Below are positions 19,269 through 46,262 of a DNA stretch of 64,000 nt, piece after piece. The stretch is from Haloferacalesvirus Serpecor1 (Duplodnaviria; Heunggongvirae; Uroviricota; Caudoviricetes; Thumleimavirales; Hafunaviridae). The stretch covers positions 10,197 to 74,196 of IMG/VR virus record IMGVR_UViG_2974801466_000001, one strand, 5' to 3'. Below the pieces are notes generated by a model that made no database searches, was not told the DNA's origin, and was given only the letters and a program-made list of their open reading frames with translations. The position numbers and the translations under genes are program-made. Every line of letters begins with the position of its first letter. Positions within the stretch are counted from its first letter, which is position 1.

Positions 19269-19322
19269 TCCTCACCCTATTAGACGTGGGGCAACGACTT
19301 AAAGATTCCTCTTTGAGTCTTT
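19269..19322 (-). promoter_or_regulatory. Conserved promoter cassette copy 1 (leftward), drives 18435..19265
   Basis: Sequence ccTCACCCTATTAGACGtggggcaacGACTTAAAGATtcctcttTGAGTCTTT. Read on the minus strand it gives AAAGACTCA, 10 nt, TTTAAG, then conserved CGTCTAATAGGGTGAGG. Confidence 0.55.
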
Positions 19323-19467
19323 AACTTGAAAACTATATGATACCAGAACTCGCAAGCACCCCACCCCTCGTGGCGTGGATGCTCGGCTTTTTCATGGCAT
19401 TGGCACTCAAACGCGGTCGGGTTCAACAGATACTCGACCAATTCCTCCCGACAGACGACTAACTCCC

Positions 19468-19522
19468 TAAGACTTAATTCGGTATCTTTAAGTCCTTAGT
19501 GGCCGTCTAATAGAGTGAGGAG
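19468..19522 (+). promoter_or_regulatory. Conserved promoter cassette copy 2 (rightward), drives nrdJ
   Basis: TAAGACTTAattcggtatcTTTAAGtccttagtggcCGTCTAATAGAGTGAGGAG. Inverted relative to copy 1, forming a divergent promoter pair. Confidence 0.55.
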
Positions 19523-19561
19523 CTTCGTGACGAACGGAGTGACCCCACTCGAATATCCATA

Positions 19562-19602
19562 CCCCGTATTACCCACTTAGGGTAGTACGGGGTGTTTTTC
19601 AC
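19562..19602 (+). terminator. 13-bp hairpin followed by T5 tract in the nrdJ leader (attenuator or terminator-like)
   Basis: ccccgtattaccc-actta-gggtagtacgggg followed by tgtttttc. Confidence 0.3.
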
Positions 19603-19706
19603 TCTAAGTAAACCGCTTAGGAGAGGGTAGGATAGAAGACAAACCCCTCGATGTAGTGAATCACTCCGAGTAGTCCACCTACTATATTACTATACTATAC
19701 AGCAAA

Positions 19707-22127
19707 ATGTCCGTAGTCACAACTGAAGCAGACGAAACCGAACAGACTCTCGAAACCCCCATCAAGACCGTCAACGATTCTCTCTCCGTAGAAGAACGCC
19801 TGACCGACAACGCTCTCCACGGCATCCTCCCGGCCCGCTATCTCCGCAAAGACTCAGAGGGCAACATCACCGAGGACGCCGACGAGCTGTTCCGACGTGT
19901 CGCTGAGAACGTCGCGGGGGCCGAGGTATCCGACGAGGATTACGAAAAGTGGGCCGACGAGTTCCAGCACCAGATGGAAACCCTCCGGTTCATGCCGAAC
20001 AGCCCGACGCTGATGAACGCGGGAACCGACATGAACCAGCTCTCCGCGTGTTTCGTAATCGAGCCGCGAGACGATATGGAAGACATTTTTGAGACGGCTC
20101 AGCAGGCCGCTCTCATCTTCCAGAGCGGGGGTGGCGTCGGCTATGCCTTCTCCCACCTCCGACCGAAGGGCGCGTTCATCAACTCCACGGGTGGCGAAGC
20201 GAGCGGCCCTGTCTCCTTTATGCGGGTCTTTGACGAAACGTGTAATCAGGTGAAACAGGGCGGGAAGCGCCGGGGAGCGCAGATGGCGATTCTCCGCGCC
20301 GACCACCCCGACGTGGGCCGATTCATCGTGGCGAAGCGGAATGAGGGCGACCTCTCGAACTTCAACATCTCTGTCGCTACGACGGACAACTTCATCGAGG
20401 CAGTTGACGCTCAGGACTCCTACACTCTCCGCGACCCCGAGACGGACTACGACGAGCCGTACACGGTGCGAGAGGCATCCGCTCACTTCTACTCCCCCGA
20501 GTATCAGGACAACCCGCGAGACGCCTTTGACGACGGCGAGGGCGCAACCGTGGACGAGAACCTGTGGCGGGACTACGCCGACGAGATTGAGTGTGAGCTG
20601 TTCGGTGAGCGCGTCTCCCTCCGCGAGAAGTGGGAGGGCCACGAGGGTCTTCGCCTCGAAGTGGGTGAGCCGATGGAGCTTCCCGCCGCGTTCATTTGGG
20701 ACGTGATGATTGACGGCGCGTGGCGGAACGGTGAGCCGGGCCTGTTCAACTTCGAGGAATCCAACCGCCAGCACTCCTTCGACGTGGAGAAGTACCCCGA
20801 GTTCCGCATGAACGCGACTAACCCCTGCGCCGAGCAGATGCTCGTGGAGTACGAAGCGTGCAACCTCGGCCACATCAACCTCAGCCTGATGCTGAAGGAG
20901 GACGCGCCGACCTACGACGAGTTCCTTAGCGATAAGCTGGATTCAATCGCTACGGGCGACCTTTCCACCCGCGAAGTCGTGGAGTGGTACTTCGAGACGG
21001 CGACGAATTTTGAAGACCTGAATCGAACCATCGAGGCTGGTGTCCGATTCCTCGATAACGTGGTCACGCAGTCCGACTTCCCGATTCCCGAGATTACCGA
21101 GCGCGTCAACGGGATGCGGAAAATCGGACTCGGAATCATGGGCTTCGCTCAGATGCTTTTCCAGATGGGGATTCCCTACGGGACGCAGGACTCCTACGAG
21201 ATGGCCCGTGCGGTCATGCGGTACATCGACCGGAAGGGAACGTGGTCGTCGCACAATCTCGCCAAGGAGCGCGGCGTGTTCGACTACTGGGACAAGAGCA
21301 AGTACGCTGACCCGACCGAGTACCCCGAGTGGTTCGCGGCCCGCACCGGGCTTGACCCGAACGACCACGCTGGCGGGTTCTTCATCCGCAACCACAACAT
21401 CACGACTATCGCCCCGACCGGCACGACCTCGATGATTGGGAACACGACGGGCGGGTGCGAGCCTGCCTACAACGTGGCGAACTTCAAGAACGTCTCCGAG
21501 GACATTCAGGGCGACGACCTGCTCGTGGAGTTTGACGACTACTTCCTTCGGACGCTCGAAGCGAACGGCATCGACGTGGACGCCGTGAAGGAGGAAGCGG
21601 AGACGCTGATGCGGAACAACGAGTTTGAGGGAGTCAACGACCTGTCTATCCCCACCGAAATCGCGGAAATCTTTGTGACCACGCAGGACTTGTCCTCTGA
21701 ACAGCACGGGCTGATGCAGAGAGCGTTCCAAGAGTTCTGCGACTCGGGCATCAGCAAGACGGTGAACCTCCCGAACGAGGCGACACACGACGACGTGAGC
21801 GAAGCCTACCAGCTTGCCCTCGATGAAGACCGACGCGGCGCGGTTATCAAGGGCCTCACCGTGTACCGGGACGGCTCCCGTGACGTTCAGGTTCTCACGA
21901 CGCGCGTGGACAACAATCTGGACGACGAGGGCGACCGCGACGACGACCTGCTTGAGCTGTACCTCAAGGGAGAGGTGAGCGAGAAGGCGGCGGTTCAGCT
22001 CGGTATCGTTGGAGAGGACGACGTGGGTTCGGATACGCTCACTTGCCCGGAGTGTGGTGACGGTGAGCTTGAGAAGACGGACGACTGTGCGGTGTGTCCC
22101 GAGTGCTGGTACTCTCCGTGTAAGTAG
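19707..22127 (+). CDS. nrdJ: Ribonucleotide reductase, class II (adenosylcobalamin-dependent), 806 aa with C-terminal zinc ribbon
   Basis: Motifs NSPTLMNAGT, TNPCAEQ and CNLGHINL. C-terminal CPECGDGELEKTDDCAVCPECWYSPC. Confidence 0.9.
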   Translation: MSVVTTEADETEQTLETPIKTVNDSLSVEERLTDNALHGILPARYLRKDSEGNITEDADELFRRVAENVAGAEVSDEDYEKWADEFQHQMETLRFMPNSPTLMNAGTDMNQLSACFVIEPRDDMEDIFETAQQAALIFQSGGGVGYAFSHLRPKGAFINSTGGEASGPVSFMRVFDETCNQVKQGGKRRGAQMAILRADHPDVGRFIVAKRNEGDLSNFNISVATTDNFIEAVDAQDSYTLRDPETDYDEPYTVREASAHFYSPEYQDNPRDAFDDGEGATVDENLWRDYADEIECELFGERVSLREKWEGHEGLRLEVGEPMELPAAFIWDVMIDGAWRNGEPGLFNFEESNRQHSFDVEKYPEFRMNATNPCAEQMLVEYEACNLGHINLSLMLKEDAPTYDEFLSDKLDSIATGDLSTREVVEWYFETATNFEDLNRTIEAGVRFLDNVVTQSDFPIPEITERVNGMRKIGLGIMGFAQMLFQMGIPYGTQDSYEMARAVMRYIDRKGTWSSHNLAKERGVFDYWDKSKYADPTEYPEWFAARTGLDPNDHAGGFFIRNHNITTIAPTGTTSMIGNTTGGCEPAYNVANFKNVSEDIQGDDLLVEFDDYFLRTLEANGIDVDAVKEEAETLMRNNEFEGVNDLSIPTEIAEIFVTTQDLSSEQHGLMQRAFQEFCDSGISKTVNLPNEATHDDVSEAYQLALDEDRRGAVIKGLTVYRDGSRDVQVLTTRVDNNLDDEGDRDDDLLELYLKGEVSEKAAVQLGIVGEDDVGSDTLTCPECGDGELEKTDDCAVCPECWYSPCK

Positions 22128-22224
22128 ACTGAGTTAATCAGTTAGCAAGCTTCCCCATCGGGCTTCACCGCCCGGTGGGGATTTTTTGCGTTTCGGGAGG
22201 GAGAAAGAGCCTCGATGCGTCTGT

Positions 22225-22425
22225 TCACGAGAAGATTTCTTCAGCGGGGACGTTGCCGTTCTGGTGCTGTTGTTTCTCCCACTCGATTTCGCCGGAGACT
22301 TTCCCGTAGAGTTCGGCGGCGAGGTTTCGGTCTTCGTAGTCGCGGTTGGGGTCGTCCTTGATGTGTTCCATTTCGTGTTCGAGGAACGCGAGTTGTTGCG
22401 GGGTCAACTCCATATAAAGAACCAC
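22225..22425 (-). CDS. Hypothetical small protein, 66 aa
   Basis: Clean acidic ORF between nrdJ and the att region. Confidence 0.25.
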   Translation of the reverse strand: MVLYMELTPQQLAFLEHEMEHIKDDPNRDYEDRNLAAELYGKVSGEIEWEKQQHQNGNVPAEEIFS

Positions 22426-22638
22426 ACACCGTGGGTATATAAAACGGGGGGTGTCAGTCAGGGTTTTCTTTCAGCCAGCCCGATTGTGGAAACTTGGTGT
22501 TACAAGTGCGGCATACGGGGCTATACCCCCTATTTATTTATAAGTAGGATTGTTAGTAGGAGGTACAGAGGCACGCAGAAGGGGTTGTTCCCGGCAAGGT
22601 TAGCCGCTTTCAGGGCCGTAGGCCCTCTCGGTAAAGCG

Positions 22639-22685
22639 CGTCCTTGGTAAGGACGAGAGCGGGGGTTCAAATCCCCCCTCAGGCT
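22639..22685 (+). other. 3' portion of a tRNA-Thr(GGT)-like gene (anticodon stem-loop to acceptor 3' strand); candidate attP core
   Basis: cgtcc-ttGGTaa-ggacg anticodon arm, ggggg-ttcaaat-ccccc T arm, ctcaggc acceptor 3' strand. No matching 5' acceptor or D arm upstream. Lies directly upstream of the integrase. Confidence 0.45.
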
Positions 22686-22901
22686 TTCAGCCTTCACGGG
22701 GCTTCTCACCCCATTTTGCGTGCTTCTTGGACACGAAACAATGCGAACCAAGAAAGCACTCTACCCACAAACGGCCACCCCCGCGCCGTCTTGCGATTCC
22801 GTGAACTGTCAGGACACTATAACTCTGAACCCCACGCGAGCGCGTATCCTCAACGGTGGTGTCCCGGCTTGAACCGCAACGACCCACTCGACAGCGTGGA
22901 A

Positions 22902-24065
22902 ATGAGCGCGGCATCCGAGGATATACCACCTGCGCCCGAACCCATCGAGTTTGGCTTCCCCCTCGTCAGCAAACGGTCGCGCGAAGACCTCGAAGCGTTC
23001 GGCTTCAACATGGTAGACGACTACCACGACTTCAAAGAAGAACTACTGACGTGGCTCGGCAACTACGGGAAAAACCCCGAAAAGTACGAAGGACTCGCCC
23101 GCACCACGCTTGAGAGTACCCACTACAAGCTCGAAACAGTCTTCCGCTGGCTATGGAAGTACGAAGACCAATACACCACCAACTTCACGCCCGAACACGC
23201 GGATAAGTTCATCTCGCTGTTGAATCAAGCCGACTCGATGATTGACAGCACCGTACTTCACCACGCGAAGGACATACGCCGGTACTTCCGCTACTGTAAC
23301 CACACGAAGGGCAAGAACTACGATTGGGAACCCGACGTGGAACTAAGCCAATCGAACGGAGGAGACGAGCGAGACTACCTCCGACGCGCCGCGTTCGAGC
23401 CGCTGTATCAAGCCGCGCTCAACCACTCGTCGGTCAAAAGCTACTACTCCTGTTCACCAGAGGAACGCACCGAGCTGAAACGATACATCTCTCAGCTAAA
23501 GAAAATCCCAATGGAAAACATCGGGGCCGAGGAGTTCAAGAAAGCAAACTCGTGGAAGTACCCGTCCATGATAGCCGTGACCTTAGACACAGGACTCCGA
23601 CCCATCGAGGTCGGACGCGCCAAGGTGTCGTGGGTGAACCTCCAAGATAACGAACTGAACATCCCGAAGGACGAGTCCACGAAGAACGAGGGACATTGGA
23701 ACTGCTCGATTCAGGGAACAACCGCAAACGCACTCGAACGGTGGCTGAAAGAGCGAAAAGCGATAGACAAGTACGACGGTCGGGACGAGCTATGGCTCAC
23801 GCAGAAGGCCCGCCCCTACAACTCCGACTCGTGTAACGGCCTGCTTGACCGAATCATCGAGTCTGGGAACGTCCCGATTCCCGAACACCGGGAGGACGAA
23901 GTATCGTGGTACAGCATCCGCCACGGAGTCGCTACGTATTGGGCGAACCACGTCGGCCCCCACCACGCGAAAGAACAGCTCCGGCACAAGTCGGTCACGA
24001 CGACGATGAAATACCTCCACTCAGACCCCGACACCCGAGGGAGCGCGGTCGAACAAATCTGGTAG
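22902..24065 (+). CDS. int: Tyrosine recombinase / integrase (probable start MSAASED at 22902; the ORF-table start 22644 overlaps the tRNA fragment)
   Basis: Catalytic residues: R in GLRPIEVGRAK, R-H in YSIRHGVATYWANH, and RHKSVTTTMKYLH with the Tyr nucleophile. Confidence 0.85.
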   Translation: MSAASEDIPPAPEPIEFGFPLVSKRSREDLEAFGFNMVDDYHDFKEELLTWLGNYGKNPEKYEGLARTTLESTHYKLETVFRWLWKYEDQYTTNFTPEHADKFISLLNQADSMIDSTVLHHAKDIRRYFRYCNHTKGKNYDWEPDVELSQSNGGDERDYLRRAAFEPLYQAALNHSSVKSYYSCSPEERTELKRYISQLKKIPMENIGAEEFKKANSWKYPSMIAVTLDTGLRPIEVGRAKVSWVNLQDNELNIPKDESTKNEGHWNCSIQGTTANALERWLKERKAIDKYDGRDELWLTQKARPYNSDSCNGLLDRIIESGNVPIPEHREDEVSWYSIRHGVATYWANHVGPHHAKEQLRHKSVTTTMKYLHSDPDTRGSAVEQIW

Positions 24066-24067
24066 CG

Positions 24068-24550
24068 TTACGACGCAACCTCCGCGACCGACTTCAGCCC
24101 GCGCTCGTTCAAACGGTACTCCTTCTTTCGACCGTCCGTGTCGTGGGGTCGCTTCTCCATCACGCCCCTCTCCGAAAGCTCCCATAGGATTTGGCTCACG
24201 TCGTCCGGGTCTATCTCGGAGTCTTCATCCAACTCCGCTTTGATTTCCGTCGTCGTGTGCCACTCGTCGCCGTTGTTCTCGTAGAGGAACGTGGCGAGCT
24301 TCCGCGTCCGTGACCCTTCCTCGAAGGTGACTAAATCCATCCCACCCCCATCCGTCTCTCCATTCACCTCAATTTCCTCTCCGGTGATGTATTCCGTGAG
24401 GTCGATTGGGGACTCCGCCTCGATTGTCACCCTGATGTTCTCGATGGATTCGTTGAATCCGACTTCCTCCATGAACGTATTGAACGCATCGAGGGATTGG
24501 TCGCCCGACAGTTCCAGAGTCATAACTCCGTCTGATTGACTTGACGACAT
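24068..24550 (-). CDS. Acidic protein with C-terminal winged-helix DNA-binding domain (candidate lysogeny or transcription regulator), 160 aa
   Basis: C-terminus WHTTTEIKAELDE...ILWELSERGVMEKRPHDTDGRKKEYRLNERG resembles a wHTH. Convergent with the integrase. Confidence 0.4.
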   Translation of the reverse strand: MSSSQSDGVMTLELSGDQSLDAFNTFMEEVGFNESIENIRVTIEAESPIDLTEYITGEEIEVNGETDGGGMDLVTFEEGSRTRKLATFLYENNGDEWHTTTEIKAELDEDSEIDPDDVSQILWELSERGVMEKRPHDTDGRKKEYRLNERGLKSVAEVAS

Positions 24551-24669
24551 AATCCGAGGATTCGCCGCCCCATCTGAAAAAGTCCGTGGCTCGTCACCTT
24601 ACTAAAACAAAAAAGACCCCCGACCACGGGGGGTCGGGGGTGGCAAACACTACTGTATCTTTAGAACCG

Positions 24670-24960
24670 CTACGCCGACGCTGGCTTGTTCTGCTCGCTA
24701 TACTTCCAGAACTCAGTTTCCTCAGAGTGTAACCGAGCGTGGTCAGCCGCCGACATGAGACTCAGATTCGATGGTCGGTTGTCCCACCGAACTCCGTTGA
24801 GGTGGTGAACTTGATTCTGACACACAGCCTCGAAGCCATGCTCCGCGACCATGATTAACCGATGAATCGCAACCTCCTTCTGGACGCCCTCGTACTCGTT
24901 CGTCGCTATCTCGTAGCCGTGATGCCAGCAATGTCCTGCTGGACTTCTATCGGAGGACAC
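24670..24960 (-). CDS. HNH endonuclease, 96 aa
   Basis: HH-LNGVRWDNRPSNL...H-ARLH (HNH signature with the DNRxxNL core). Confidence 0.7.
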   Translation of the reverse strand: MSSDRSPAGHCWHHGYEIATNEYEGVQKEVAIHRLIMVAEHGFEAVCQNQVHHLNGVRWDNRPSNLSLMSAADHARLHSEETEFWKYSEQNKPASA

Positions 24961-24961
24961 G

Positions 24962-26326
24962 TCACTTCTTGAAGTTCATCACGGGCTTGAGGCGGTCAAC
25001 GACCCGCGCCGTGGGTTCCAGATTCTCCTCGATGAGTTCCATCGGCTTGTAGGCTTCCGGCACTTCGTCGCCGGGGACGACCGCCGAGTACGTCCCGTTG
25101 TCGTACATCCGCTTGCGGGTGGCGTCGGCGTCGAACTGCTCGTGCGCCCATCCACGGGAACCGAGTCGGCCCGCACCGTGGGGAGCCGAGTAGTTGTAGT
25201 CGGGGTTCCCGCGTCCCTGACAGAGCAGAGTACCGTCCTCCATGTTCATCGGGATGGCGAACAGCTCACCGTCCTGAGCGCGGGTGGAGCCTTTCCGAAT
25301 CACCATATCCTCGAAGTCCACGTAGTTGTGCGGGGAGTCGAGGAACTTGTTGATAGACGCATCGAGGGTTTCGGCCACCTCCTGAATCATCAGCAGGCGG
25401 TTGAAGCTCGCGTAAGTCTGAGCGAGCATCATATCGTAGTAGTACCCGTAGGCTTCGCGGCCTTCGAGGTAATCGAGGTCTTTGTTCCGGTCGGCGTCCG
25501 GGGAGTAGGACTCAATCTCGGAGCCGATACGTTCGATTTCCTCGCCGTCGTTGTAGAGGCGAATCTTCTCCCAATCCGGGGAGCCGTCGCGGTTCGTGTA
25601 GTGCTTCAACCGCTCGCCCATCTCGCCCCACTTCACGTCGGCGTCACGGTGTTCGGTCGCCTTCGCCTGCCAGTACGCCGCGACCTTCTGACCGAGGTTC
25701 CGCGACCCGGAGTGAACGACTACCCACAGGTCGCCGGACAGCTCGGACTCAGCAATCTCGATGAAGTGATTACCGGAACCGAGCGTGCCGAGGGAACGGA
25801 GCGCGTATCTCTTGCTGATTCCGACGCGCTTGCACATCTTCTCGAAGTAGTCCGGGCGGAACATCCCCTCGTCCCGGTTCTCGTAGTCGAAGTCCATCGC
25901 GTCGTAGAAGTAGAGTAGCTTCTCGTTCACCTTCCACCACGGGAACGACCACTCAAGTTCGACCGGCGGCTCCTTGTGAGCGCGACCCGTCCCCATCGGA
26001 ATCCGGTCGCGTACCTCCTTGTTCACCTCACGGAAGTCGTCTATATCGGATGGGTGGTCGGCGGTCGATACATCGAGGCGGGCCGCCGTCATACCGCACC
26101 CAATGTCGCCCCCGACCGTCTTCGGAATCACGCGGTCGGTCAGCGGCATCGAGAACCCGACGATACACGCAGGCCCGAGGCCCCCGTGACAGTCCGGCAT
26201 GAACTTCACCGGGTTCTGGAACGCCTCGTGGTCAACCATCTCCTGTATCTCGTCACGGAGTCCGTCTTCCACTTCTTCTTCTGGTAGGTGTACCTCTGCT
26301 GTCGTACTGTTTCCTTCTACAATCAT
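24962..26326 (-). CDS. rtcB: RtcB-family RNA 3'-phosphate ligase, 454 aa
   Basis: NYSAPHGAGRLGSRGWA, HNYVDFED, and metal-ligand Cys/His (CHGGLGPACIVGF, GNHFIE). Confidence 0.85.
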   Translation of the reverse strand: MIVEGNSTTAEVHLPEEEVEDGLRDEIQEMVDHEAFQNPVKFMPDCHGGLGPACIVGFSMPLTDRVIPKTVGGDIGCGMTAARLDVSTADHPSDIDDFREVNKEVRDRIPMGTGRAHKEPPVELEWSFPWWKVNEKLLYFYDAMDFDYENRDEGMFRPDYFEKMCKRVGISKRYALRSLGTLGSGNHFIEIAESELSGDLWVVVHSGSRNLGQKVAAYWQAKATEHRDADVKWGEMGERLKHYTNRDGSPDWEKIRLYNDGEEIERIGSEIESYSPDADRNKDLDYLEGREAYGYYYDMMLAQTYASFNRLLMIQEVAETLDASINKFLDSPHNYVDFEDMVIRKGSTRAQDGELFAIPMNMEDGTLLCQGRGNPDYNYSAPHGAGRLGSRGWAHEQFDADATRKRMYDNGTYSAVVPGDEVPEAYKPMELIEENLEPTARVVDRLKPVMNFKK

Positions 26327-26540
26327 TAGGTCTGTTTAGATAGAGTGTATAACTCTGAGTGTTCTACTACGGTACTGTCTTAGTTGAGTGAACAACCCTC
26401 GATGTGGTAAAACTCAAAGTAGGTAACTAACGGTAGTAAACTACTAAGAGTATATATCTAAGATAGATATTTCGCCCGCGTTATGCGCTCGCGCGAGCTA
26501 ATTCGGATGTTTCGTCGTATAGTACCAGACGGTACTATAT

Positions 26541-26567
26541 GACTTAAAGATGCCGATTTAAGTCTTT
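26541..26567 (-). promoter_or_regulatory. Promoter cassette copy 3 (core only), leftward toward rtcB
   Basis: GACTTAAAGATgccgatTTAAGTCTTT. Minus strand reads AAAGACTTA, 10 nt, TTTAAG. Confidence 0.45.
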
Positions 26568-26572
26568 AAGGA

Positions 26573-26785
26573 CTACTGTGGTGGCTTCAAGAACCGGAGC
26601 GGAACCGACCACGAACCCTTCAAGAACCACACGAAGAACCACGGATAGACGAACATCGTCGCCAGCATATTCAGAAGCGAAACCACCAGCACACCATAGA
26701 ACGCTACCTCCAAGAACAGAAGCAGGAACGCCTGAATCGTGAACCCGAGGTAGAACGAGTAGATGTAGGTGTTAGCTGTCTTCAT
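26573..26785 (-). CDS. Small membrane protein, 70 aa (two hydrophobic helices)
   Basis: Hydrophobic stretches FYLGFTIQAFLLLFLEVAFYGVLVVSLLNMLA. Confidence 0.4.
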   Translation of the reverse strand: MKTANTYIYSFYLGFTIQAFLLLFLEVAFYGVLVVSLLNMLATMFVYPWFFVWFLKGSWSVPLRFLKPPQ

Positions 26786-27218: not shown

Positions 27219-27334
27219 CGGTAATCGTTTCGTCTCCGGGGTCTTCGGGGTTCACCGTCCCGAGGTATTCGCCGTTCAATACAACGTCCACCCACTCGTC
27301 GTGGGTTCCCATAACCGGGGGACTCTCTCCCACG

Positions 27335-29390: not shown

Positions 29391-29430
29391 TGTGTCTCTC
29401 TGGTTTAGATTATCGCGCAGAACAGCGGCT

Positions 29431-29483
29431 CCTCACTCTAATAGACGTTGGGCAAGGACTTAAAGACTTCTATCTAAGTCTTT
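29431..29483 (-). promoter_or_regulatory. Promoter cassette copy 4 (leftward), drives the thyX-dcd operon; overlaps the polB 3' end
   Basis: cCTCACTCTAATAGACGttgggcaagGACTTAAAGActtctatctAAGTCTTT. Confidence 0.55.
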
Positions 29484-36330: not shown

Positions 36331-36345
36331 TATGGTGGAGGGCGC

Positions 36346-36696: not shown

Positions 36697-36697
36697 A

Positions 36698-39622: not shown

Positions 39623-39637
39623 GTGTTTGAGTGGTCA

Positions 39638-39751
39638 TTAGGTACACCTCTCGGTGAAGCTCGTACAGCCCGCACTCTGACAGCCCGGACAGTATTCTGC
39701 TACGCCGCCGGTACTGGTTTCACAGCACCGGCACGTCCAGCGACCGTTCAT
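39638..39751 (-). CDS. 37-aa Cys-rich zinc-ribbon peptide (MNGRWTCRCCETSTGGVAEYCPGCQSAGCTSFTERCT)
   Basis: ATG overlaps the TGA stop of the upstream 498-aa gene (ATGA). Eight Cys residues. Confidence 0.35.
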   Translation of the reverse strand: MNGRWTCRCCETSTGGVAEYCPGCQSAGCTSFTERCT

Positions 39752-41244
39752 CCGAGCGTGCCACCAGCGAAGGCTTGCTCCGCGCCAGCATCGTCGGTGT
39801 CGTCGGCGTCGTCGGACTCATCGGCGTCGTCGCCTCCGCCGTAGAGGTCTTGGGAGAACACGTCTTCCTCCTGCTCGGTCGCTTCTTCGACCTTTTCTTC
39901 GAGGATGTTGTATTTCGTGATGTTCAGCTTCTCCCCGGTGAAGGGGTGGGTCACGAACAGGCCGTCGCCTTCGCAGTACCGCTCGATGTATTCCTCCGCA
40001 ATGTCGTCGGGGAGGGCCTTTCGAGCGGTTTCCTTCGTGTCCTCCACGATTTCCTCCCAATTGAGGCTCACGTCACGCTTCGCCTGAGCCGCGAACTCGG
40101 ATGCCTTCCACATCACGGGGTTCTCGTTCTGGTCTTTGCGAACGTAGCCCTTCGTGAGCATATTGTTCAGCGCGGAGTGAACGTCCCGGTTCGTGATGTT
40201 GAAGCCACGGTCGCGCATCTCCATCTGAATCTCGGCCTTCGAGTACCCGCTGTTGGATTCTCGAAGCATCGACAGCATCTCGAAGTCAATCTCGCGGAGA
40301 TTGAGCGCCGAGAGAATCATCTGCTCACCGAAGATTCGCATGGCGTACCACACGTCGGCGGGCGTGATTAGGAGAGTCGCCGTCTCCTTCCGGTCAGGAA
40401 GGGCGGGAGTCATGCGGTCTTTGTAGTGGAACAGAGCCACAGACCGGCAGAAGTCCAGCAGGCGCGGGAAGTCCTGTCGGGCCTCGGTGAAGTGCTGAGG
40501 GAGCGGGTTCTGGTTGTTCAGCGCAACCGACACCGGGTTCAGCGTTCCACCGTTCGGGCCGTCGTCGGACGAGAACATCTTGACGGGGATGCCGGAGACG
40601 TACCGGCGAATCTCGTCGCGCTCATCCTCGGTGAAGTTATACTCGACGAGGCCAGCTTCCTGCCGGGCCTGCCGCTCGTTCACCTCCTTGGTCAGCTCCT
40701 CGCTGGCGTCGATGGAGACGACGAGAGCGCGGTTCCGAAGTTCGGGGTAGTCGTTGAGGTCAACCTGCTGGTTGTCCGAAGCGACGAACAGCACGAAGGC
40801 GTCCGGCGGCTTCAGCTCGAACGACTCGGTTTGACCGCTCGTACCGAGAGCGCGAGAGTGGGTAGCCGACTTGCCCTCTCCGTGTCGCTTCATAATCTCC
40901 TCCAAGTGCTGTTTGTCTTGAAGGGTCGCAATGTCCGGGTAACGGTGGACACGGGCCGAGTTCATCTGGTCTTCTTTCATGTAGAGGTCGGTCTTACTGG
41001 TCGAGTCGGGAACCTTGAACACGAAGTCCCCCATCGTACAGTAGTCAGCCGCATCCACCACCATGTCCTTGCCACCTCGTGAGAGGCCGGTCATAGCGAC
41101 GAACCCTCCGTTGAACCACGAGAGGAACACGGTCTGAAGGGTGTCTTCTTCCCCCATCAGCCCGAAATCCTCTTTCATCAGCGTCAGGTCGTACAGGTTC
41201 GGAATGTAGGTTTCTTCCATCTGGTTGAGAACGGGTATGTGCAT
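39748..41244 (-). CDS. P-loop-like NTPase with C-terminal winged-helix and poly-acidic tail, 498 aa (candidate replication initiator or helicase loader)
   Basis: Deviant Walker A TGLSRGGKD, hhhhD stretches (FVLFVASDN, LVVSIDASEE), wH-like EIQMEMRDRGFNITNRDVHSALNNMLTKGYVRK. Positioned upstream of the primase. Confidence 0.45.
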   Translation of the reverse strand: MHIPVLNQMEETYIPNLYDLTLMKEDFGLMGEEDTLQTVFLSWFNGGFVAMTGLSRGGKDMVVDAADYCTMGDFVFKVPDSTSKTDLYMKEDQMNSARVHRYPDIATLQDKQHLEEIMKRHGEGKSATHSRALGTSGQTESFELKPPDAFVLFVASDNQQVDLNDYPELRNRALVVSIDASEELTKEVNERQARQEAGLVEYNFTEDERDEIRRYVSGIPVKMFSSDDGPNGGTLNPVSVALNNQNPLPQHFTEARQDFPRLLDFCRSVALFHYKDRMTPALPDRKETATLLITPADVWYAMRIFGEQMILSALNLREIDFEMLSMLRESNSGYSKAEIQMEMRDRGFNITNRDVHSALNNMLTKGYVRKDQNENPVMWKASEFAAQAKRDVSLNWEEIVEDTKETARKALPDDIAEEYIERYCEGDGLFVTHPFTGEKLNITKYNILEEKVEEATEQEEDVFSQDLYGGGDDADESDDADDTDDAGAEQAFAGGTLG

Positions 41245-41321
41245 TGCGAGCGTAATTTCAGGAACCTATTTCATGGCCTAAGCTCGGGACTATACTACTT
41301 CATCGAGCGGGAGAACAGAGC

Positions 41322-41567
41322 CTACTCGTCCTTTCGGACGTGCTTCTCCCACCGCTCCATGATGCTCCTCTCCGTCGCTTCCCACGCAAGGTCTTCCAGA
41401 GCCTCGATGACTTCCTCCGGGTCGTCAACAGGCTCGCCGTCCTCGTGGGGAATCTCGGCGGTTAGGAACGTGTGGGCCGTCGCAGGTTCGTACTGCCCGA
41501 GTTGTTTCTTCTTGTCCGTACCGACCTGTACCTCCGTCACGTACTGCTTGGCGTCGTCCTTGTCCAT
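41322..41567 (-). CDS. Hypothetical small protein, 81 aa
   Basis: ORF. Confidence 0.35.
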   Translation of the reverse strand: MDKDDAKQYVTEVQVGTDKKKQLGQYEPATAHTFLTAEIPHEDGEPVDDPEEVIEALEDLAWEATERSIMERWEKHVRKDE

Positions 41568-41598
41568 CTTTAAGAGTTAGGGGTGCGTCTCCGAGTCT

Positions 41599-42552
41599 TT
41601 ACATCCGGTTCTCGATTTCCGCAACCACCGCATCGAGGTCGTAGTCGGCGTCACCGACTTCGCCGTTCACGAGCTGTTCGACGTTCTCCGGGTTCGTCTC
41701 GCCCGTGTTCGCCATGAAGTCGATAATCTGGTCGGCGGCCTGCGGGACACCCTCGGGAAGCCCCTCGTCGTCGGAGCCGTCGCCGCCGAGCGAACCACCG
41801 GAGTCACCGGAGGACTCGTCGGCGTCGTCGCTGTCACCGCCGCCGTTGTTGGCGATGGTGATACCGGCCAGCGTCTCGGCGTCGAGAACCTTCGCGTCCG
41901 TGTATTCCACGTAGTCGTCTTCGCTCTCCGCGTCGTCCGGCAGGAAGCCGTCCTTGTAGTAGGAGAGAATCACGCGGCGGCCTTCGAGGTCGTCTCGAAG
42001 TTCGAGAGCATCCTCGTTCAGCCAGTTGTAGTTGTCGTCCTTGTCGTCAACCACGTCGTGACCGGCGGGCGTGATGACCTTGGCGAAGGTGCGGTTCTTC
42101 GTCCCGTTGCTGAGCCACAGCGTACAGTTGCCGAGGCTCACCGGGTCGTCGCCCTCCTTCACCGCCTCGGAGAGTTTGTACGTGAAGTCGTTGCTACCGA
42201 ACTGCTCGTTGTGCCGGGAAGGAACGTCGTCGGCGTCCACATCCTCCGCAAGTGCGCCGTTGTCGTCGGTGGCGAACCAAGTGTCCCACCCGAAGACCTT
42301 GACCGTATCATCGTCCGGGTCGCCGGGCGACCGCTCCATCACGATTCCGTCGATTACCTCCACGTCGTCGGCGTCCACGATGAGGGACTGCCCGTAGGAC
42401 GACCCGGTGTATTCACCGAGACGACCAATCGTGAACGAGATGAAGGCGTAGTTGTTCATCTTGAGCGACAGGCGCTCCTCGAAGTCGCCGCCCGCGCCGC
42501 TGTTGCTGTTGTTGCTACCGCCGCTGTTGTAGTCGGTGTCGAAAAGGCTCAT
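41599..42552 (-). CDS. Hypothetical acidic protein with Gly/Ser/Asp-rich termini (SSB-like acidic tail?), 317 aa
   Basis: First gene of the leftward replication operon. C-terminal GGGDSDDADESSGDSGGSLGGDGSDDEG. Confidence 0.4.
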   Translation of the reverse strand: MSLFDTDYNSGGSNNSNSGAGGDFEERLSLKMNNYAFISFTIGRLGEYTGSSYGQSLIVDADDVEVIDGIVMERSPGDPDDDTVKVFGWDTWFATDDNGALAEDVDADDVPSRHNEQFGSNDFTYKLSEAVKEGDDPVSLGNCTLWLSNGTKNRTFAKVITPAGHDVVDDKDDNYNWLNEDALELRDDLEGRRVILSYYKDGFLPDDAESEDDYVEYTDAKVLDAETLAGITIANNGGGDSDDADESSGDSGGSLGGDGSDDEGLPEGVPQAADQIIDFMANTGETNPENVEQLVNGEVGDADYDLDAVVAEIENRM

Positions 42553-42783
42553 TTGTTGTAGTTGGGTTTCTCTGGTTCTGGTTATCGGTCGGTACGAAGC
42601 CAGCTACGGCATAGGTATTTGCGCCGTAGAAAGTCTGGACGGGCGGAATCGAACCGCCCTTGGGAGGTTTACAGCCTCCGCGTTCGCCTTGAACACGTCC
42701 AGAAATGGCCTATGATTGGGGGTGTCCACACCGCGTGAACGGGAGTGGCTACAAAGGTACGGCCAGCACCTCGCGTAGCCAAG

Positions 42784-42856
42784 CGCCGAGGACAGGACTC
42801 GAACCTGTGACTACGTGGTTAACAGCCACGCGCTCTACCAACTGAGCTACCTCGGC
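42784..42856 (-). tRNA. tRNA-Asn (anticodon GTT)
   Basis: The reverse complement folds canonically: acceptor gccgagg/cctcggc, D arm gctc-agttggta-gagc, anticodon arm cgtgg-ctGTTaa-ccacg, T arm acagg-ttcgagt-cctgt, discriminator g. Confidence 0.9.
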
Positions 42857-42883
42857 AAGAGAAAGGAAGGATTGGGTGCTTGT

Positions 42884-42934
42884 CCCCACTCTATTAGATG
42901 TGGGACTAAGACTTAAAGATACCTATATGAGTCT
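42884..42934 (-). promoter_or_regulatory. Promoter cassette copy 5 (leftward), drives tRNA-Asn
   Basis: cCCCACTCTATTAGATGtgggactaaGACTTAAAGATACCtatatGAGTCTTA. Confidence 0.55.
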
Positions 42935-43019
42935 TAGAAGTCGTCGGGAGGGATACCCCGCTCGATGAAGTTAGTAGCAAGTGGAGAACCACGACCGGGA
43001 GAGATAGACGTAGGAGACA

Positions 43020-43229
43020 TTACTTATCGAGACGGTTAACCCACGTAGAGAGATTCTTCACGGAGAGGCCGTCAGACCGAATATCGTCAGCGAGAGAGTT
43101 GAGAGAATCGAGTAGAGCAGAATCGTTGAGAGAGACGGGATATTCGATAGAGATGATGTCCACCTCGTCTCCGTCACCGAACGGTTCAAGAGTCACTTCG
43201 AGGTCGCCGGAGGTCTGAGTGTAGCTCAC
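43020..43229 (-). CDS. Hypothetical small acidic protein, 69 aa
   Basis: ORF. Confidence 0.35.
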   Translation of the reverse strand: MSYTQTSGDLEVTLEPFGDGDEVDIISIEYPVSLNDSALLDSLNSLADDIRSDGLSVKNLSTWVNRLDK

Positions 43230-43676
43230 TTACTCCTCCGAGAGCGCGTCGAAGTTCGGAACGACCGTGCCGTTCACGCGGTTGCCGGGAACGCTCATCC
43301 CGGTCAGCTCGAACACGTCGGCCACCTTCTCGATACCGAACGCATCGAGTAGGTCGAAGAACTCGGCGGAAGCGTCCTCGATACCATCGGGGAGGTCGAA
43401 CTCCAAGTCAGCCGGGTCGGGGCCGTTCTCCGTGTACGTGGGAATGACCACGTACAGGTCTTCGGTCAGCTCACCCCGGTCGATGAGTCTCGGCTCACCG
43501 AACTGAATCTGAACCTCGAAGCCGGAGTCCGTGCGTTCCGTGATTGCGTTGAAGACCGCCTCCGCCCCGCCGAGGTCGAGGTAGTCGTATTCGTTGTCGT
43601 TACTGCCGAACAGTAGGTTTCGGATGAATCCAAACATAGTTCTCTCTGGTTTCCAGCAGATAACCGTCGCTGGCAC
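43230..43676 (-). CDS. Hypothetical acidic protein, 148 aa
   Basis: ORF coupled to the downstream gene. Confidence 0.4.
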   Translation of the reverse strand: MPATVICWKPERTMFGFIRNLLFGSNDNEYDYLDLGGAEAVFNAITERTDSGFEVQIQFGEPRLIDRGELTEDLYVVIPTYTENGPDPADLEFDLPDGIEDASAEFFDLLDAFGIEKVADVFELTGMSVPGNRVNGTVVPNFDALSEE

Positions 43677-43718
43677 GGCTTAGGTAGCGTAGTACCGAAT
43701 CCCCAATGACTAAGGGGA

Positions 43719-43799
43719 AGCGACCGGCGGGAATCGAACCTCGCCTTGACCCTACCCACGCCCGTCGAGGGGCATGGTCATAGGGCCACCATTGGTCGC
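43719..43799 (-). ncRNA. tRNA-like element (acceptor 6 bp, D-like arm, irregular anticodon arm with 6-nt loop, T-like arm with 8-nt loop GTTCGATT and an A-C mismatch)
   Basis: Reverse complement gcgacc..tggt-ggccctatg-acca..ggcgag-gttcgatt-cccgcc-ggtcgc. Does not satisfy canonical tRNA rules. Confidence 0.3.
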
Positions 43800-43818
43800 A
43801 AAACGCAGAACGAGTGTG

Positions 43819-43953
43819 CTACTCGTTCTTCATTTCGTACATCGTCTCCTCGTGTTCCAACTCAGCCTTTCGTCGGAAGTATCCGAACGCGGCCACCGTG
43901 ATAACCGCCACGAGGAACAGCCACAGAATAATCAAGAAGACGACTTTGAACAT
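43819..43953 (-). CDS. 44-aa single-pass membrane peptide (MFKVVFLIILWLFLVAVITVAAFGYFRRKAELEHEETMYEMKNE), partner of the SPFH protein
   Basis: ATG is 1 nt after the SPFH gene stop. Below the ORF-table cutoff. Confidence 0.35.
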   Translation of the reverse strand: MFKVVFLIILWLFLVAVITVAAFGYFRRKAELEHEETMYEMKNE

Positions 43954-43954
43954 C

Positions 43955-44830
43955 CTACTCGCCTTCTTCGTCAGTCTCCGTCACGAGCGAGGGGGTTTCG
44001 TCACTCGGGAGGTAGATGGTCTTACCATCCGAGTTCTTGATTGCCTCGATGTAGCGAATCTGGATGAGTTCCGGGTTGTTACGAACGGACTGAGCGACAA
44101 TCTCGTTCGACTTCGCCTCACCACGAGCCTTCTCGATTTGGGCACGGGCTTCCTGCTTCGCCACTTCAACCTCGGCCTCAGCCTTCAGCTCTCTCTGTTG
44201 GGCGACCTCCTTCTCCGTAATTGAACGCTCGTAAGACTCGGGGAAGTTCACCTTCGTAATCTGAACGGAGTCCAGAACGAGGCCGGTCTGAGCGAACTTC
44301 TCCTCAAGCTGGCTCCGAGCATCCATCGTGATTTCCGTCTGACCGGCGGAGGTGTAGACCTCGCTCGTCTTCATGCTACCCGTCGTAACGAGCATCTGCT
44401 TGGCGAGCGTCGTCCGAATCATCCGCTTCTCGGCGTTCTCAAGAGTGCGGTAGTCGGTGTAGAAGTCAGTCACCGCCTCCGGGTCGTTCGGAAGCTGGTA
44501 GCGAACGGTCACGTCGAACGTCGCCTCCACACCATCGGCGGTCTTCACCACGATGGGGTCAGCGTATTCTTTCGCTCCCTCTCCGGGGTTCGAGGTCATG
44601 GTGTACGCCTGCTGGCGAGTAGAGAGCGTCACAACGTCGTTCTGGACAGGAGTAATCCAGTTCGCACCGGGCTGAAGAACCTCACCGCTTGCGTCACCCC
44701 ACTCGGTGACGACGCCGACGTTTCCTTCATCAACGGGATTCCATGCCATCGCACCGAGCGAACCGGCGGTGAGAAGCATGAAAGCCATAACAACTCCGAC
44801 AGCTTTCAGTTTGAATGTAGTTAGTTCCAT
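43955..44830 (-). CDS. SPFH / band-7 (stomatin-prohibitin-flotillin-HflK/C) family membrane protein, 291 aa
   Basis: N-terminal TM anchor, then the SPFH core (GNVGVVTEWG...VTLSTRQQ...ADGVEATFDVTVRYQL), then a C-terminal coiled coil (QQRELKAEAEVEVAKQEARAQIEKARGEA). Confidence 0.8.
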   Translation of the reverse strand: MELTTFKLKAVGVVMAFMLLTAGSLGAMAWNPVDEGNVGVVTEWGDASGEVLQPGANWITPVQNDVVTLSTRQQAYTMTSNPGEGAKEYADPIVVKTADGVEATFDVTVRYQLPNDPEAVTDFYTDYRTLENAEKRMIRTTLAKQMLVTTGSMKTSEVYTSAGQTEITMDARSQLEEKFAQTGLVLDSVQITKVNFPESYERSITEKEVAQQRELKAEAEVEVAKQEARAQIEKARGEAKSNEIVAQSVRNNPELIQIRYIEAIKNSDGKTIYLPSDETPSLVTETDEEGE

Positions 44831-44874
44831 TTAGTAGATTTCTCTGGTCTGTTTAATAGAGCGGTACACCGCAT

Positions 44875-44943
44875 CGAGTTGGGAGGAATCGAACCTACCC
44901 ACTACGCTAACCAGCAACTCGGAAAAGCCACCGTAGAGGTGGC
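44875..44943 (-). ncRNA. tRNA-like minihelix (7-bp acceptor-like stem cgagttg/caactcg enclosing a T-arm-like hairpin gtagg-ttcgatt-cctcc) plus adjacent 6-bp hairpin gccacc-gtaga-ggtggc
   Basis: Lacks D and anticodon arms. Located in the leader between promoter cassette 6 and the SPFH gene. Confidence 0.3.
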
Positions 44944-45009
44944 TGGACACCAACGAGTAACAATGGCAGGACTCAGCCAAGCAAACGAGTCAAGGGGGCC
45001 ACCGCGACC

Positions 45010-45063
45010 TCCTCACTCTATTAGACGCGATACTATGACTTAAAGATACCGCTTTGAGTCTTT
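45010..45063 (-). promoter_or_regulatory. Promoter cassette copy 6 (leftward), drives the tRNA-like/SPFH operon
   Basis: cCTCACTCTATTAGACGcgatactatGACTTAAAGATACCgcttTGAGTCTTT. Confidence 0.55.
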
Positions 45064-45119
45064 ACTCCGTGCTACTCAGATAGCAAAGACTTAAGCGAAG
45101 CAACTCCGTCTTTGTAGCT

Positions 45120-45671
45120 ATGGCGAAGACGAAACATAAGAATCAGGAAAAGGTCGTCAAGTGCCCCGTTGAGGGTTGCGACCACGAGGGGTTATCCCGA
45201 GGGATGCACCTTCACGTTCGTCAGTCCAGCGGCAACGGACACGGGCCGAACGGGGATGTACCCGAACACTTAGACTTTAGTAATCTGGAAGTTGTGGGTA
45301 CACGGGAAGTTGAAATGGATTACCCGTCTGAACGCAAAGGCGAGGACGTTGCCCGTCTCTGTCCCTTCTGCCGACGCCCATTCAGCGGGTATCAGGGAGT
45401 TATGATTCACCTCGGTCAGATTCAGGGGAAGGAGAACCACCCTGAGGATGCTACCGATATGGTGGAGAAGGGTGACTGTCCGGTTGCTCACGTCGATGAG
45501 AACCGCAACGTTGTAGAAGTGATTGAGGAAGGCGACCCCGACCTCATGCCGTCCACGGAAGACCGTCGTGAAGGCTCTGTGCCGCGAGCCGACGTGATTG
45601 CCTACATCGAGTGGGCTGAATCCAACGACCACCTCACGGCGGCCAACAAAGCCCGAGAGATGCTACTCTAA
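45120..45671 (+). CDS. Zinc-finger protein, 183 aa
   Basis: KCPVEGCDHEG and CPFCRRPFSG Cys/His pairs. Confidence 0.45.
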   Translation: MAKTKHKNQEKVVKCPVEGCDHEGLSRGMHLHVRQSSGNGHGPNGDVPEHLDFSNLEVVGTREVEMDYPSERKGEDVARLCPFCRRPFSGYQGVMIHLGQIQGKENHPEDATDMVEKGDCPVAHVDENRNVVEVIEEGDPDLMPSTEDRREGSVPRADVIAYIEWAESNDHLTAANKAREMLL

Positions 45672-46189
45672 ATCTCGATTTCGTCACGCCACTTTTCCGA
45701 GAAGAACTCGGGTTCGTACTTCCACTTATTTATCGACGGGTCGTTACGGTACAGTTCGTTTGTGAGCTTCACCATCTCGTAGAACCCCTGTTTCGTCAGG
45801 TAGTCCTTCTCCCGATACGCCGGGAGGATTTCTCCCATGAAGATGGACGCCAGCTCACTCTGCTGAATCAGGTACGGAGCCAGCGGCCCGTAGAATCGCT
45901 CAATTGATTCAGCGTCCGAGATTTTGAACAGCATCGTCGTTCCGCTATCCTTGATTTCCCACCGGACTCCCTGCTCGGAACAGTATTCCTCGAATAGCCC
46001 GAACACGGCGGTCTGTGGGTCGCTACGACTGATTTGAACGTATGGTTCTATCTTGTATCCGGTCTTGAAGTCATCATCCTCGCTGATTTCCACTCGGAAC
46101 CGACCGAGTGAATCGACTACTCCGGCGATGTACGCTACGTCGTCCTCTTTCATACCACCCAGTTTCGGGGTGGCCTGTGATAATGTCAT
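45668..46189 (-). CDS. LAGLIDADG-type homing endonuclease-like protein (single motif, I-CreI-sized), 173 aa
   Basis: N-terminal DVAYIAGVVDSLGRF matches the LAGLIDADG core pattern. Free-standing between two inverted promoter cassettes. Confidence 0.4.
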   Translation of the reverse strand: MTLSQATPKLGGMKEDDVAYIAGVVDSLGRFRVEISEDDDFKTGYKIEPYVQISRSDPQTAVFGLFEEYCSEQGVRWEIKDSGTTMLFKISDAESIERFYGPLAPYLIQQSELASIFMGEILPAYREKDYLTKQGFYEMVKLTNELYRNDPSINKWKYEPEFFSEKWRDEIEI

Positions 46190-46205
46190 TCATTGTTCTG
46201 CTGTC

Positions 46206-46262
46206 AAAGACTTAGAATCGGTATCTTTAAGTCCTTAGTTGCCGTCTATTAGAGTGAGGAGT
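46206..46262 (+). promoter_or_regulatory. Promoter cassette copy 7 (rightward), drives 46443..47383
   Basis: AAAGACTTAgaatcggtatcTTTAAGtccttagttgCCGTCTATTAGAGTGAGGAG. Confidence 0.55.

Follow-up and report, generated by a model that had tools for sequence, protein, structure and literature searches.

Seven intergenic repeats in the genome of Halorubrum virus Serpecor1 correspond to the class I promoter repeats of HF2

We analyzed a 64,000-nucleotide stretch of viral DNA (hereafter, the window) that is 100% identical to the genome of Halorubrum virus Serpecor1 (MN901521.1); a position in the window plus 10196 gives the position in that record. Seven copies of a conserved cassette are found in it, all of them intergenic. 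Alignment of the seven copies gives the consensus AAAGACTYA, 9-10 nt (often CGGTATC), TTTAAGTC, 9 nt, CGTCTWWTAGAGTGAGGAG, which reproduces the consensus of the original prediction. The copies also lie where they had been placed, with coordinates shifted by no more than 1-2 nt, and they are far too numerous for chance. The 19-nt downstream block CGTCTAATAGAGTGAGGAG, with up to three mismatches allowed, matches at six sites, namely 19268(-), 19504(+), 29429(-), 42882(-), 45009(-) and 46243(+); shuffled sequences contain 0.04 matches on average, and none of 100 shuffles contains six. The 8-mer CTTTAAGT has exactly seven matches in the 64 kb, one per cassette and none elsewhere. The family was additionally found by an unguided repeat search (groups D2, D12 and I1-I5).

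The cassettes, all in the early/middle arm, pair one-to-one with the repeats IR1c, IR2, IR3, IR4, IR4.5, IR5c and IR6 of the related virus HF2; order, orientation and downstream genes agree. The genes that flank them in turn are those of the ERCC4 side, SPFH, tRNA-Asn, polB/thyX, rtcB, nrdJ and HrrSp1_185. The orthologue of IR1c occupies 46206..46261 on the plus strand (upstream block 46206-46214, TATA block 46225-46232, downstream block 46243-46261); it has a predicted start site at G46256 and faces HrrSp1_425, the ATG of which is at 46443. The IR2 orthologue (45009..45063, minus strand, predicted start site G45014) precedes a prohibitin/SPFH gene that starts at 44830. The IR3 orthologue (42882..42936, minus strand) has its predicted start site at G42887, 31 nt 5' of tRNA-Asn (42856..42783); tRNA-Tyr comes next. 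The IR4 orthologue (29429..29483, minus strand, predicted start site G29434) is followed by HrrSp1_270, thyX and dcd, and the polB stop codon (TAA) overlaps the beginning of its upstream block.

The copy of the IR4.5 type lies at 26516..26567 on the minus strand, with a predicted start site at G26516 and a 190-nt leader before rtcB (start at 26326). A core-only copy had been proposed at 26541-26567. This core is present, on the minus strand: the upstream and TATA blocks and CGTCT are retained, and the 9-bp inverted repeat TATAGTACC / GGTACTATA (26518-26539) replaces the remaining part of the downstream block. The last two copies are the IR5c orthologue (19468..19522, plus strand, predicted start site G19517), separated by a 190-nt leader from the nrdJ ATG at 19707, and the IR6 orthologue (19268..19322, minus strand), whose predicted start site G19273 is only 8 nt before the HrrSp1_185 ATG (19265). 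Two divergent pairs had been described. The 19.3/19.5 kb pair is indeed compact and back-to-back; its upstream blocks are 145 bp apart, and the gap holds a small annotated ORF. The 45.0/46.2 kb copies do face outward, but they are 1.14 kb apart, with the convergent genes HrrSp1_415 and HrrSp1_420 in between.

The seven cassettes are thus the already known, published class I repeats. Class I intergenic repeats of HF1/HF2-type viruses were first described by Tang et al. 2002, and the HF2 record AF222060.2 annotates them with the words "intergenic repeat ... contain promoter motifs"; the Serpecor1 GenBank record leaves them without annotation. Serpecor1 has been stated to carry class I repeats (PMC7230728), and its copies have been compared with those of HF2 in published supplements (PMC7230728, PMC8707807). 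All defining features are seen in the window: the alpha block AAAGACTYA, the beta block TCTTTAAGTC with the TATA box inside and the gamma block CGTCTNNTAGAGTGAGGAG follow each other in fixed order and spacing within 56-58 bp. Six of the seven copies have the complete alpha-beta-gamma arrangement, and the seventh is the published IR4.5 variant, in which gamma is swapped for the 9-bp inverted repeat. The beta sub-strings CTTTAAGT and TCTTTAAGTC are confined to the repeats (the former by its count in the 64-kb window). The repeats of HF2 and HF1 are like the Serpecor1 copies in the 56-58 bp unit, the three blocks, their spacing and the seven positions, and HF2 IR4.5 has the same inverted-repeat variant. 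The Serpecor1 and HF2 copies differ by a few point changes and not in kind; among these are TAGGGTG for TAGAGTG in IR6, and CATCT and GTGGGGAC in IR3.

Experiments with the HF2 repeats support the view that the cassettes are promoters marking the starts of transcription units. In uninfected Haloferax volcanii, with no viral gene present, every class I repeat of HF2 drove expression of a bgaH reporter, and the repeats are strong promoters there (PMC8707807). Primer extension placed the start at one and the same G within the downstream block, and in IR4.5 two bases further 3' (PMC8707807). These start sites were apparently mapped on reporter-plasmid RNA from Hfx. volcanii, since a bgaH primer is listed in the supplement, while the methods allow either reporter or infected-cell RNA (PMC8707807). 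In scanning mutagenesis, for which IR4 was used, mutations of the TATA box or of the start region abolished activity, and mutations of the upstream AAAGACT block or the BRE had no effect (PMC8707807). IR3 heads the 18-kb F52 transcript (PMC8707807). The HF2 work agrees with the original prediction in placing TTTAAG within the TATA box, AAAGACTYA upstream of the BRE and the transcription start inside the downstream block (PMC8707807). As far as basal activity is concerned, the function of the HF2 repeats in uninfected Haloferax volcanii contradicts the further suggestion of a dedicated, virus-specific initiator in place of a generic promoter.

In the HF2 paper the TATA box is counted from -26 and the BRE from -33 to -37, with the IR4.5 start G lying two bases 3' (PMC8707807). 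The exact start register was inferred from these text positions. The sole register that fits them is TAGAGT[G]AGGAG, with the start base in brackets; in it the downstream block would run from about -13 to about +6. A G is retained in the Serpecor1 copies at the positions that match the published starts, and a published HF2 start site outside the repeats, T-4384, has the same GAGT[G] context.

We consider it highly probable (roughly 0.9) that the seven cassettes, as Haloferacalesvirus class I repeats, are strong promoters for the host TBP, TFB and RNA polymerase that also contain putative operator sites for timing. By analogy, the Serpecor1 copies are expected to behave like their HF2 orthologues. 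Their sequence has what an archaeal TBP/TFB promoter needs: TCTTTAA at -32 to -26, a CGGTA-like element at -37 to -33, T at -1 and G at +1, the last two in agreement with the archaeal initiator rule. The host machinery would read each repeat as a strong archaeal promoter, with a BRE of about CGGTA, TCTTTAA as the TATA box, and an AT-rich proximal element and an initiator within the downstream block. Transcription would start at the G of TAGAGT[G]AGG, and the repeats would launch early-to-middle units with genes for tRNAs, replication, nucleotide metabolism and RNA repair. Two conserved parts that basal activity does not need, namely the upstream AAAGACTYA block and the sequence flanking the TATA box, would be operators through which a virus-encoded regulator times the promoters.

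One form of such regulation is compatible with the promoter explanation and would extend it. The upstream block repeats the TATA half-site in inverted orientation, and the resulting dyad GACTYA-N12/13-TAAGTC is present in all seven copies and nowhere else in the window. The arms are perfect over 8 bp in the IR4.5 copy; in the IR3 copy the alpha side is the reverse complement of the TATA side across 8 consecutive bases. A dimeric viral protein might bind GACTYA-N12-TAAGTC over the BRE and TATA box and switch the class I promoters jointly; candidates include HrrSp1_475, a CxxC-HTH protein, and HrrSp1_220 (24068..24550), a protein of the winged-helix type. HrrSp1_475 (49959..50384), the HTH candidate of the original prediction, is the orthologue of HrrHF2_165, which the HF2 authors named as a regulator candidate (PMC8707807). 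The upstream block is kept across the genus and is dispensable for basal activity, as is expected of an operator. The motif is also abundant outside the repeats: AAAGACT occurs 21 times in the window, [AT]AAGACTYA is observed 18 times versus 1.3 expected, and about 12 non-repeat AAAGACT sites, located in the early arm, are positionally conserved among Serpecor1, HF2 and HJTV-1. "A common regulatory motif" is also what the HF2 authors suggested for the upstream block (PMC8707807).

Several facts count against a dimer at the dyad. The half-site centres are 18 bp (about 1.7 helical turns) apart, a spacing poorly suited to a symmetric dimer on one face of the DNA, and the TATA half-site is already constrained by TBP. 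The copies are paralogues, so their seven dyads are not seven independent observations. Mutation of the upstream block had no effect in the HF2 reporter assay (PMC8707807). The dyad may instead be a second, inverted TATA-like box, either a relic or a weak bidirectional promoter; in reverse orientation, IR1c and IR3 have low activity, and that of the other class I repeats is negligible (PMC8707807). Taken together, we regard the dimeric operator as possible, with the odds somewhat against it. A viral regulator bound to the upstream and downstream blocks is putative both here and in the literature, where it has the standing of a conjecture.

A broader version seems distinctly unlikely to us: that AAAGACTYA is the operator of a genus-wide viral regulon, with a viral repressor or activator at the dyad and antitermination or attenuation in the leaders setting the early-to-middle timing. 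Apart from the "common regulatory motif" remark, it goes beyond the published description. The leaders do have features of interest. The 190-nt nrdJ leader contains a conserved, covarying hairpin followed by five T (19559-19600, the T run at 19596-19600), and the 184-nt IR2 leader contains a hairpin with a T run at about 44925 together with a truncated tRNA-Arg remnant. The latter is the "tRNA-like" element noted earlier 3' of the 45.0 kb copy; the tRNA-Arg is intact in HF2, and the score of the remnant is below detection. Transcripts from the nrdJ and SPFH repeats may not simply read through into the gene, because a hairpin and a T run follow soon after the start. An alignment of four leaders of about 187 nt revealed no common 5'-proximal sequence. 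A distal block, CTCGATGTAGTGAA.CACTC.GAGTA, has a close match only between the nrdJ and HrrSp1_425 leaders.

The cassette could, in principle, act as RNA on read-through transcripts: its upstream and TATA blocks would pair into a hairpin at which processing or termination takes place, giving the shorter RNAs of Northern blots. The two blocks can pair (9 bp in IR4), some copies fold better than shuffled sequences (z = -2.7, -4.1 and -2.2), and long primary transcripts of HF2 cross IR4 and IR4.5, for which the authors propose processing (PMC8707807). However, three of the seven show no folding advantage over shuffled sequences (z from +0.03 to +0.35), the pairing register varies among copies, and no U tract of at least 5 follows the hairpin. 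Moreover, the z of -4.1 belongs to IR4.5 and is due to its own 9-bp inverted repeat rather than to pairing of the upstream and TATA blocks. We therefore rejected a conserved RNA structure inside the cassette (folding z from -4.1 to +0.35, inconsistent registers) and give the RNA role little credence. We also discarded another apparent hairpin, in which the spacer would pair with the downstream block: its register shifts among copies, and its 5' arm is upstream of the start site. Searches of Rfam found no RNA family over any cassette in the whole window at the gathering threshold, and no known family overlapping the cassette in a search of the IR2 leader at E <= 1.

Least probable is that the downstream block gives the early and middle transcripts a shared tag of about 20 nt at their 5' ends that is recognised as RNA, a reading that is largely refuted already. 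The block is as conserved as the TATA box, and all transcripts would start with GAGGA(G/C), similar to a Shine-Dalgarno core. The original prediction had the block extend over the start site and the first 20 or so transcribed nucleotides, which it does not: in the register given above it would span about -13 to +6, and the published start leaves just 5-6 nt of it transcribed. In 43 unique repeats from relatives, conservation extends from -49 to about +5/+6 and then drops sharply, so that information content is at background from +6/+7; a shared tag could be GAGGA at most. In addition, IR4.5 is an active promoter entirely without the block, reporter activity is lost when the block is mutated (PMC8707807), as a promoter or initiator element would behave, and the first start codon lies between 8 and 190 nt beyond the start site.

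Returning to the host-read promoters, the class I repeats can be compared with three other systems. Generic haloarchaeal BRE-TATA-PPE-INR promoters share with them the TATA box about 26-32 nt before the start, the adjacent 5' BRE, the AT-rich region around -10 and the pyrimidine/purine initiator. Unlike the class I repeats, generic host promoters are not conserved over about 55 bp, and an exact-pattern scan of haloarchaeal species-representative genomes did not find the cassette. The class II repeats of HF2 (IR11c and IR12c; 29 bp; late promoters) are likewise conserved intergenic promoters of the same viruses that are active in Hfx. volcanii. They differ in having the unrelated sequence ATATAAACCCCTTTACCATTAATAG, a location in the late (morphogenesis) arm, a start at A and substantial activity in reverse orientation. 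None of the seven cassettes contains the 29-bp AT/C-rich class II unit with CCCTTTAC. Elsewhere in the window there is one class II-like site, near 12513-12529.

Promoters of the T7 type are long, near-identical repeats that begin 5' of the start and end a few bases into the transcript, and they order temporal transcription classes in a linear genome with terminal repeats. The likeness to the class I repeats is that of a genome-wide, near-identical promoter that organises temporal classes, and the comparison was also drawn in PMC8707807. However, T7 promoters are read by a phage RNA polymerase, whereas Haloferacalesviruses encode none, and their repeats use the host TBP, TFB and RNA polymerase alone (PMC8707807). 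The repeats bear on how a tailed archaeal virus that lacks an RNA polymerase programmes early, middle and late transcription via the host machinery. For HF2 this significance is already recognised, and experiments have worked out part of it; the Serpecor1 copies figure in published comparisons. Our analysis adds independent confirmation that the original prediction, made from raw sequence, had found all of the published repeats. It also corrects the RNA-tag idea and offers several leads towards a putative regulator: the dyad, the extra sites of the upstream motif and the leader hairpins.

The element was detected in 41 of 50,697 phage records, all of them Haloferacalesvirus, at 4-6 places per genome. 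A strict exact-pattern scan of 185,579 species-representative genomes gave no haloarchaeal match and no host counterpart or provirus; its 11 single matches are in unrelated bacteria and look like chance. True matches in IMG/VR are Haloferacalesvirus isolates or short metagenomic contigs with the same repeats. Four further IMG/VR loci (L003, L005, L011 and L020) were rejected as chance matches that do not have the rest of the cassette. The only rearrangement noted between relatives is the presence or absence of a methylase gene, which is located beside the integrase and not at a repeat.

Each of the seven repeated cassettes of about 55 nt that the original prediction had placed between 19269 and 46262 contains one copy of the 8-mer CTTTAAGT, which is found nowhere else in the 64-kb window. 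Six matches to the 19-nt downstream block with at most three mismatches were found against 0.04 expected, a number reached in none of 100 shuffles, and the family was also recovered by an unsupervised repeat search (D2, D12, I1-I5). The existence of the seven cassettes is thus borne out. Alignment of the copies in the direction of transcription reproduces the proposed consensus: AAAGACTYA (the upstream block, alpha), 9-10 nt, TCTTTAAGTC (the TATA block, beta), 9 nt, and CGTCTWWTAGAGTGAGGAG (the downstream block, gamma). All seven copies are intergenic, the first bases of the 29.4 kb copy overlapping the TAA stop codon of polB; none is annotated in the Serpecor1 GenBank record MN901521.1. In the minus-strand copy at 26541-26567 the upstream block, the TATA block, and CGTCT are preserved, but the remainder of the downstream block is replaced by a 9-bp inverted repeat (26518-26539).

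Across an 8-kb piece, the window matches Halorubrum virus Serpecor1 at 100% identity (MN901521.1, genus Haloferacalesvirus; record coordinate = window + 10196). Its cassettes are the intergenic repeats (IRs) known as class I in the HF1/HF2 group. The record of the related halovirus HF2 (AF222060.2) annotates IR1c, IR2, IR3, IR4, IR5c, and IR6 as “AT-rich intergenic repeats that contain promoter motifs”. Pairwise alignment matches the window copies to the HF2 repeats one-to-one in order, orientation, and downstream sequence: 46206 (+) to IR1c, 45063 (-) to IR2, 42936 (-) to IR3, 29483 (-) to IR4, 26567 (-) to IR4.5, 19468 (+) to IR5c, and 19322 (-) to IR6. The names alpha, beta, and gamma are those of Russ, Pfeiffer and Dyall-Smith 2021, who report that class I repeats keep their position and sequence throughout the genus, including Serpecor1 (PMC8707807); the Serpecor1 paper likewise states that this virus carries them and sets them against HF2 in its Figure S3 (PMC7230728). 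The class I element is therefore already known: it has a published description, experiments have characterised it in HF2, and its presence in the Serpecor1 genome has been stated explicitly. The cassettes are not class II repeats (the 29-bp late type): their sequence differs, and the sole class II-like site in the window lies at 12513-12529 (+; AAACCCTTTACCATTAA), presumably the counterpart of the HF2 late promoter IR11c.

The best supported reading of the cassette is a host-dependent archaeal promoter (BRE, TATA box, PPE, and INR) launching early-middle transcription units. IR3 would start the tRNA-Asn and tRNA-Tyr genes and then a long replication operon, IR4 thyX and dcd, IR4.5 rtcB, IR5c nrdJ, IR2 the SPFH gene, IR6 a near-leaderless mRNA of HrrSp1_185, and IR1c HrrSp1_425 with an ERCC4-type endonuclease gene. 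The prediction of promoters is largely correct, since all seven HF2 class I IRs in native orientation drive a bgaH reporter in Haloferax volcanii, with low or negligible activity in reverse (PMC8707807). The further claim that the cassette is something other than a generic promoter is contradicted, because basal activity occurs without any viral factor. Alpha and the flank of beta, which are conserved and dispensable in the reporter, are natural candidate sites for a viral regulator, as the authors of PMC8707807 and we conjecture.

Primer extension mapped the HF2 class I starts to one shared G of gamma, and that of IR4.5 two bases further 3', with the TATA box from -26 and the BRE at -33 to -37 (PMC8707807). 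A bgaH primer for primer extension on reporter transcripts is listed in the supplement of that paper, the methods permit reporter or infected-cell RNA, and we saw no statement there that IR starts were mapped in infected cells. We derived the start register from three statements in the published text: the TATA box ends at -26 and is immediately preceded by the BRE at -33 to -37, transcription begins at a G, and in IR4.5 it begins at a G two bases further 3'. TAGAGT[G]AGGAG is the only register that agrees with all three statements, and the GAGT[G] context also surrounds T-4384, a published non-IR start of HF2. The Serpecor1 starts predicted in this register are 19273(-), 19517(+), 26516(-), 29434(-), 42887(-), 45014(-), and 46256(+). 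With these starts, the downstream block would extend from about -13 to +6. In a set of 43 unique full repeats, drawn from the window and IMG/VR contigs, information content stays high between -49 and +5 and is at background from +6/+7; several columns of this profile are fixed by the search pattern, while -32, -21, +4, and +5 are free. The ideas that the block covers the first 20 or so transcribed nucleotides and that it may be a common 5' RNA tag are therefore unsupported. A conserved RNA hairpin inside the cassette was rejected, as the folds are inconsistent among copies; no Rfam family overlaps any cassette.

A blastn search with one cassette found matches in 41 of 50,697 phage records, with 4-6 places per matching record at the sensitivity of such a search. 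Tallied by organism and host, these records coincide with those that share the 8-kb region of Serpecor1; their hosts are Halorubrum, Haloarcula, and Haloferax. When 185,579 species-representative genomes were scanned with a strict pattern, 11 scattered bacterial matches and none in haloarchaea were obtained. Since the phage records match and haloarchaeal genomes do not, the cassette is, judging by these searches, confined to this virus lineage rather than a type of host promoter.

The pattern GACTYA-N12/13-TAAGTC is present in all seven cassettes and nowhere else in the window, so that the alpha core repeats the 3' half of the TATA block in inverted orientation; we found no mention of this dyad in PMC8707807. 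[AT]AAGACTYA occurs 18 times versus 1.3 expected. Outside the repeats, about 12 AAAGACT sites keep their positions across Serpecor1, HF2, and HJTV-1, all on the local gene strand and often directly 3' of a stop codon. AAAGACT(Y) sites lie, mostly on the minus strand, at 5038, 37210, 41600, 45085, 49979, 51551, 56060, 56290, 57366, 59654, 60328, 61113, and 62345. Most of the non-repeat sites are at gene junctions, and several are followed 12-17 nt later by an inverted partner; of such sites the published HF2 work notes only T-4384 (PMC8707807). The element at 60288-60328 (-) is a compact class I relative, with the upstream block and a downstream-block-like GTCTTTGAGAGTGAGGAAC about 13 nt apart. 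It lacks the TCTTTAAGTC block and, measured from the GAGT[G] start context, the upstream block itself occupies the place of the TATA box. Its HF2 equivalent, 3666-3706, is named only as primer pair “IRB” in Table S1 (PMC8707807).

The nrdJ leader contains a 16-pair terminator-like hairpin followed by T5 at 19559-19600 (+), 42-83 nt past the predicted start at 19517 and before the ATG at 19707. It is kept in seven relatives, with two compensatory pair changes in the stem (GC<->AU, UA<->CG), and might serve as an attenuator or mark where a short leader RNA ends; no mention of it was found in PMC7230728 or PMC8707807. The SPFH leader (44840-44930 (-)) has a similar hairpin, GCCACC/GGTGGC with TTTT, followed by a tRNA-Arg remnant. 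This tRNA is intact in HF2 (18509-18583) and HJTV-1; about 27 nt, the anticodon arm among them, are missing from the Serpecor1 version. The remnant, which lies after the 45.0 kb repeat and ahead of the SPFH gene, explains the “tRNA-like” label of the original prediction. The dyad, the extra AAAGACT sites, and the leader hairpins would be compatible with operator-plus-attenuation regulation; they fit it and prove nothing.

The block CTCGATGTAGTGAAyCACTCnGAGTA is common to the nrdJ (19647-19672 (+)) and HrrSp1_425 (46341-46366 (+)) leaders, about 85-130 nt past the predicted starts, and weaker versions are found in the rtcB and SPFH leaders; all four leaders are 184-190 nt long. An AT-rich TATA-like sequence follows the block near the ATG, and the block may mark second, gene-proximal promoters. 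At 46.3 kb it corresponds to the region of the published HF2 bidirectional promoter T-17064/T-17022.

Two tRNA-like minihelices, each an acceptor-like stem and a T arm with loop UUCGACU, lie at 61050-61090 (-) and about 59575-59625 (-). Both are just downstream of a AAAGACTCA...TTTAAC element and are kept in HF2 and HJTV-1; a possible role is as RNase P / tRNase Z processing signals in the long early transcripts. Rfam matches the first only weakly to mascRNA-menRNA (22 bits, E = 0.18, under threshold). At 53366-53433 (-), directly upstream of a Rad3-like helicase gene, there is a type II hammerhead ribozyme (Rfam RF02276; 39.1 bits against a gathering score of 37), which is already annotated as HrrSp1_510 in MN901521.1 and HrrHF2_135 in HF2.
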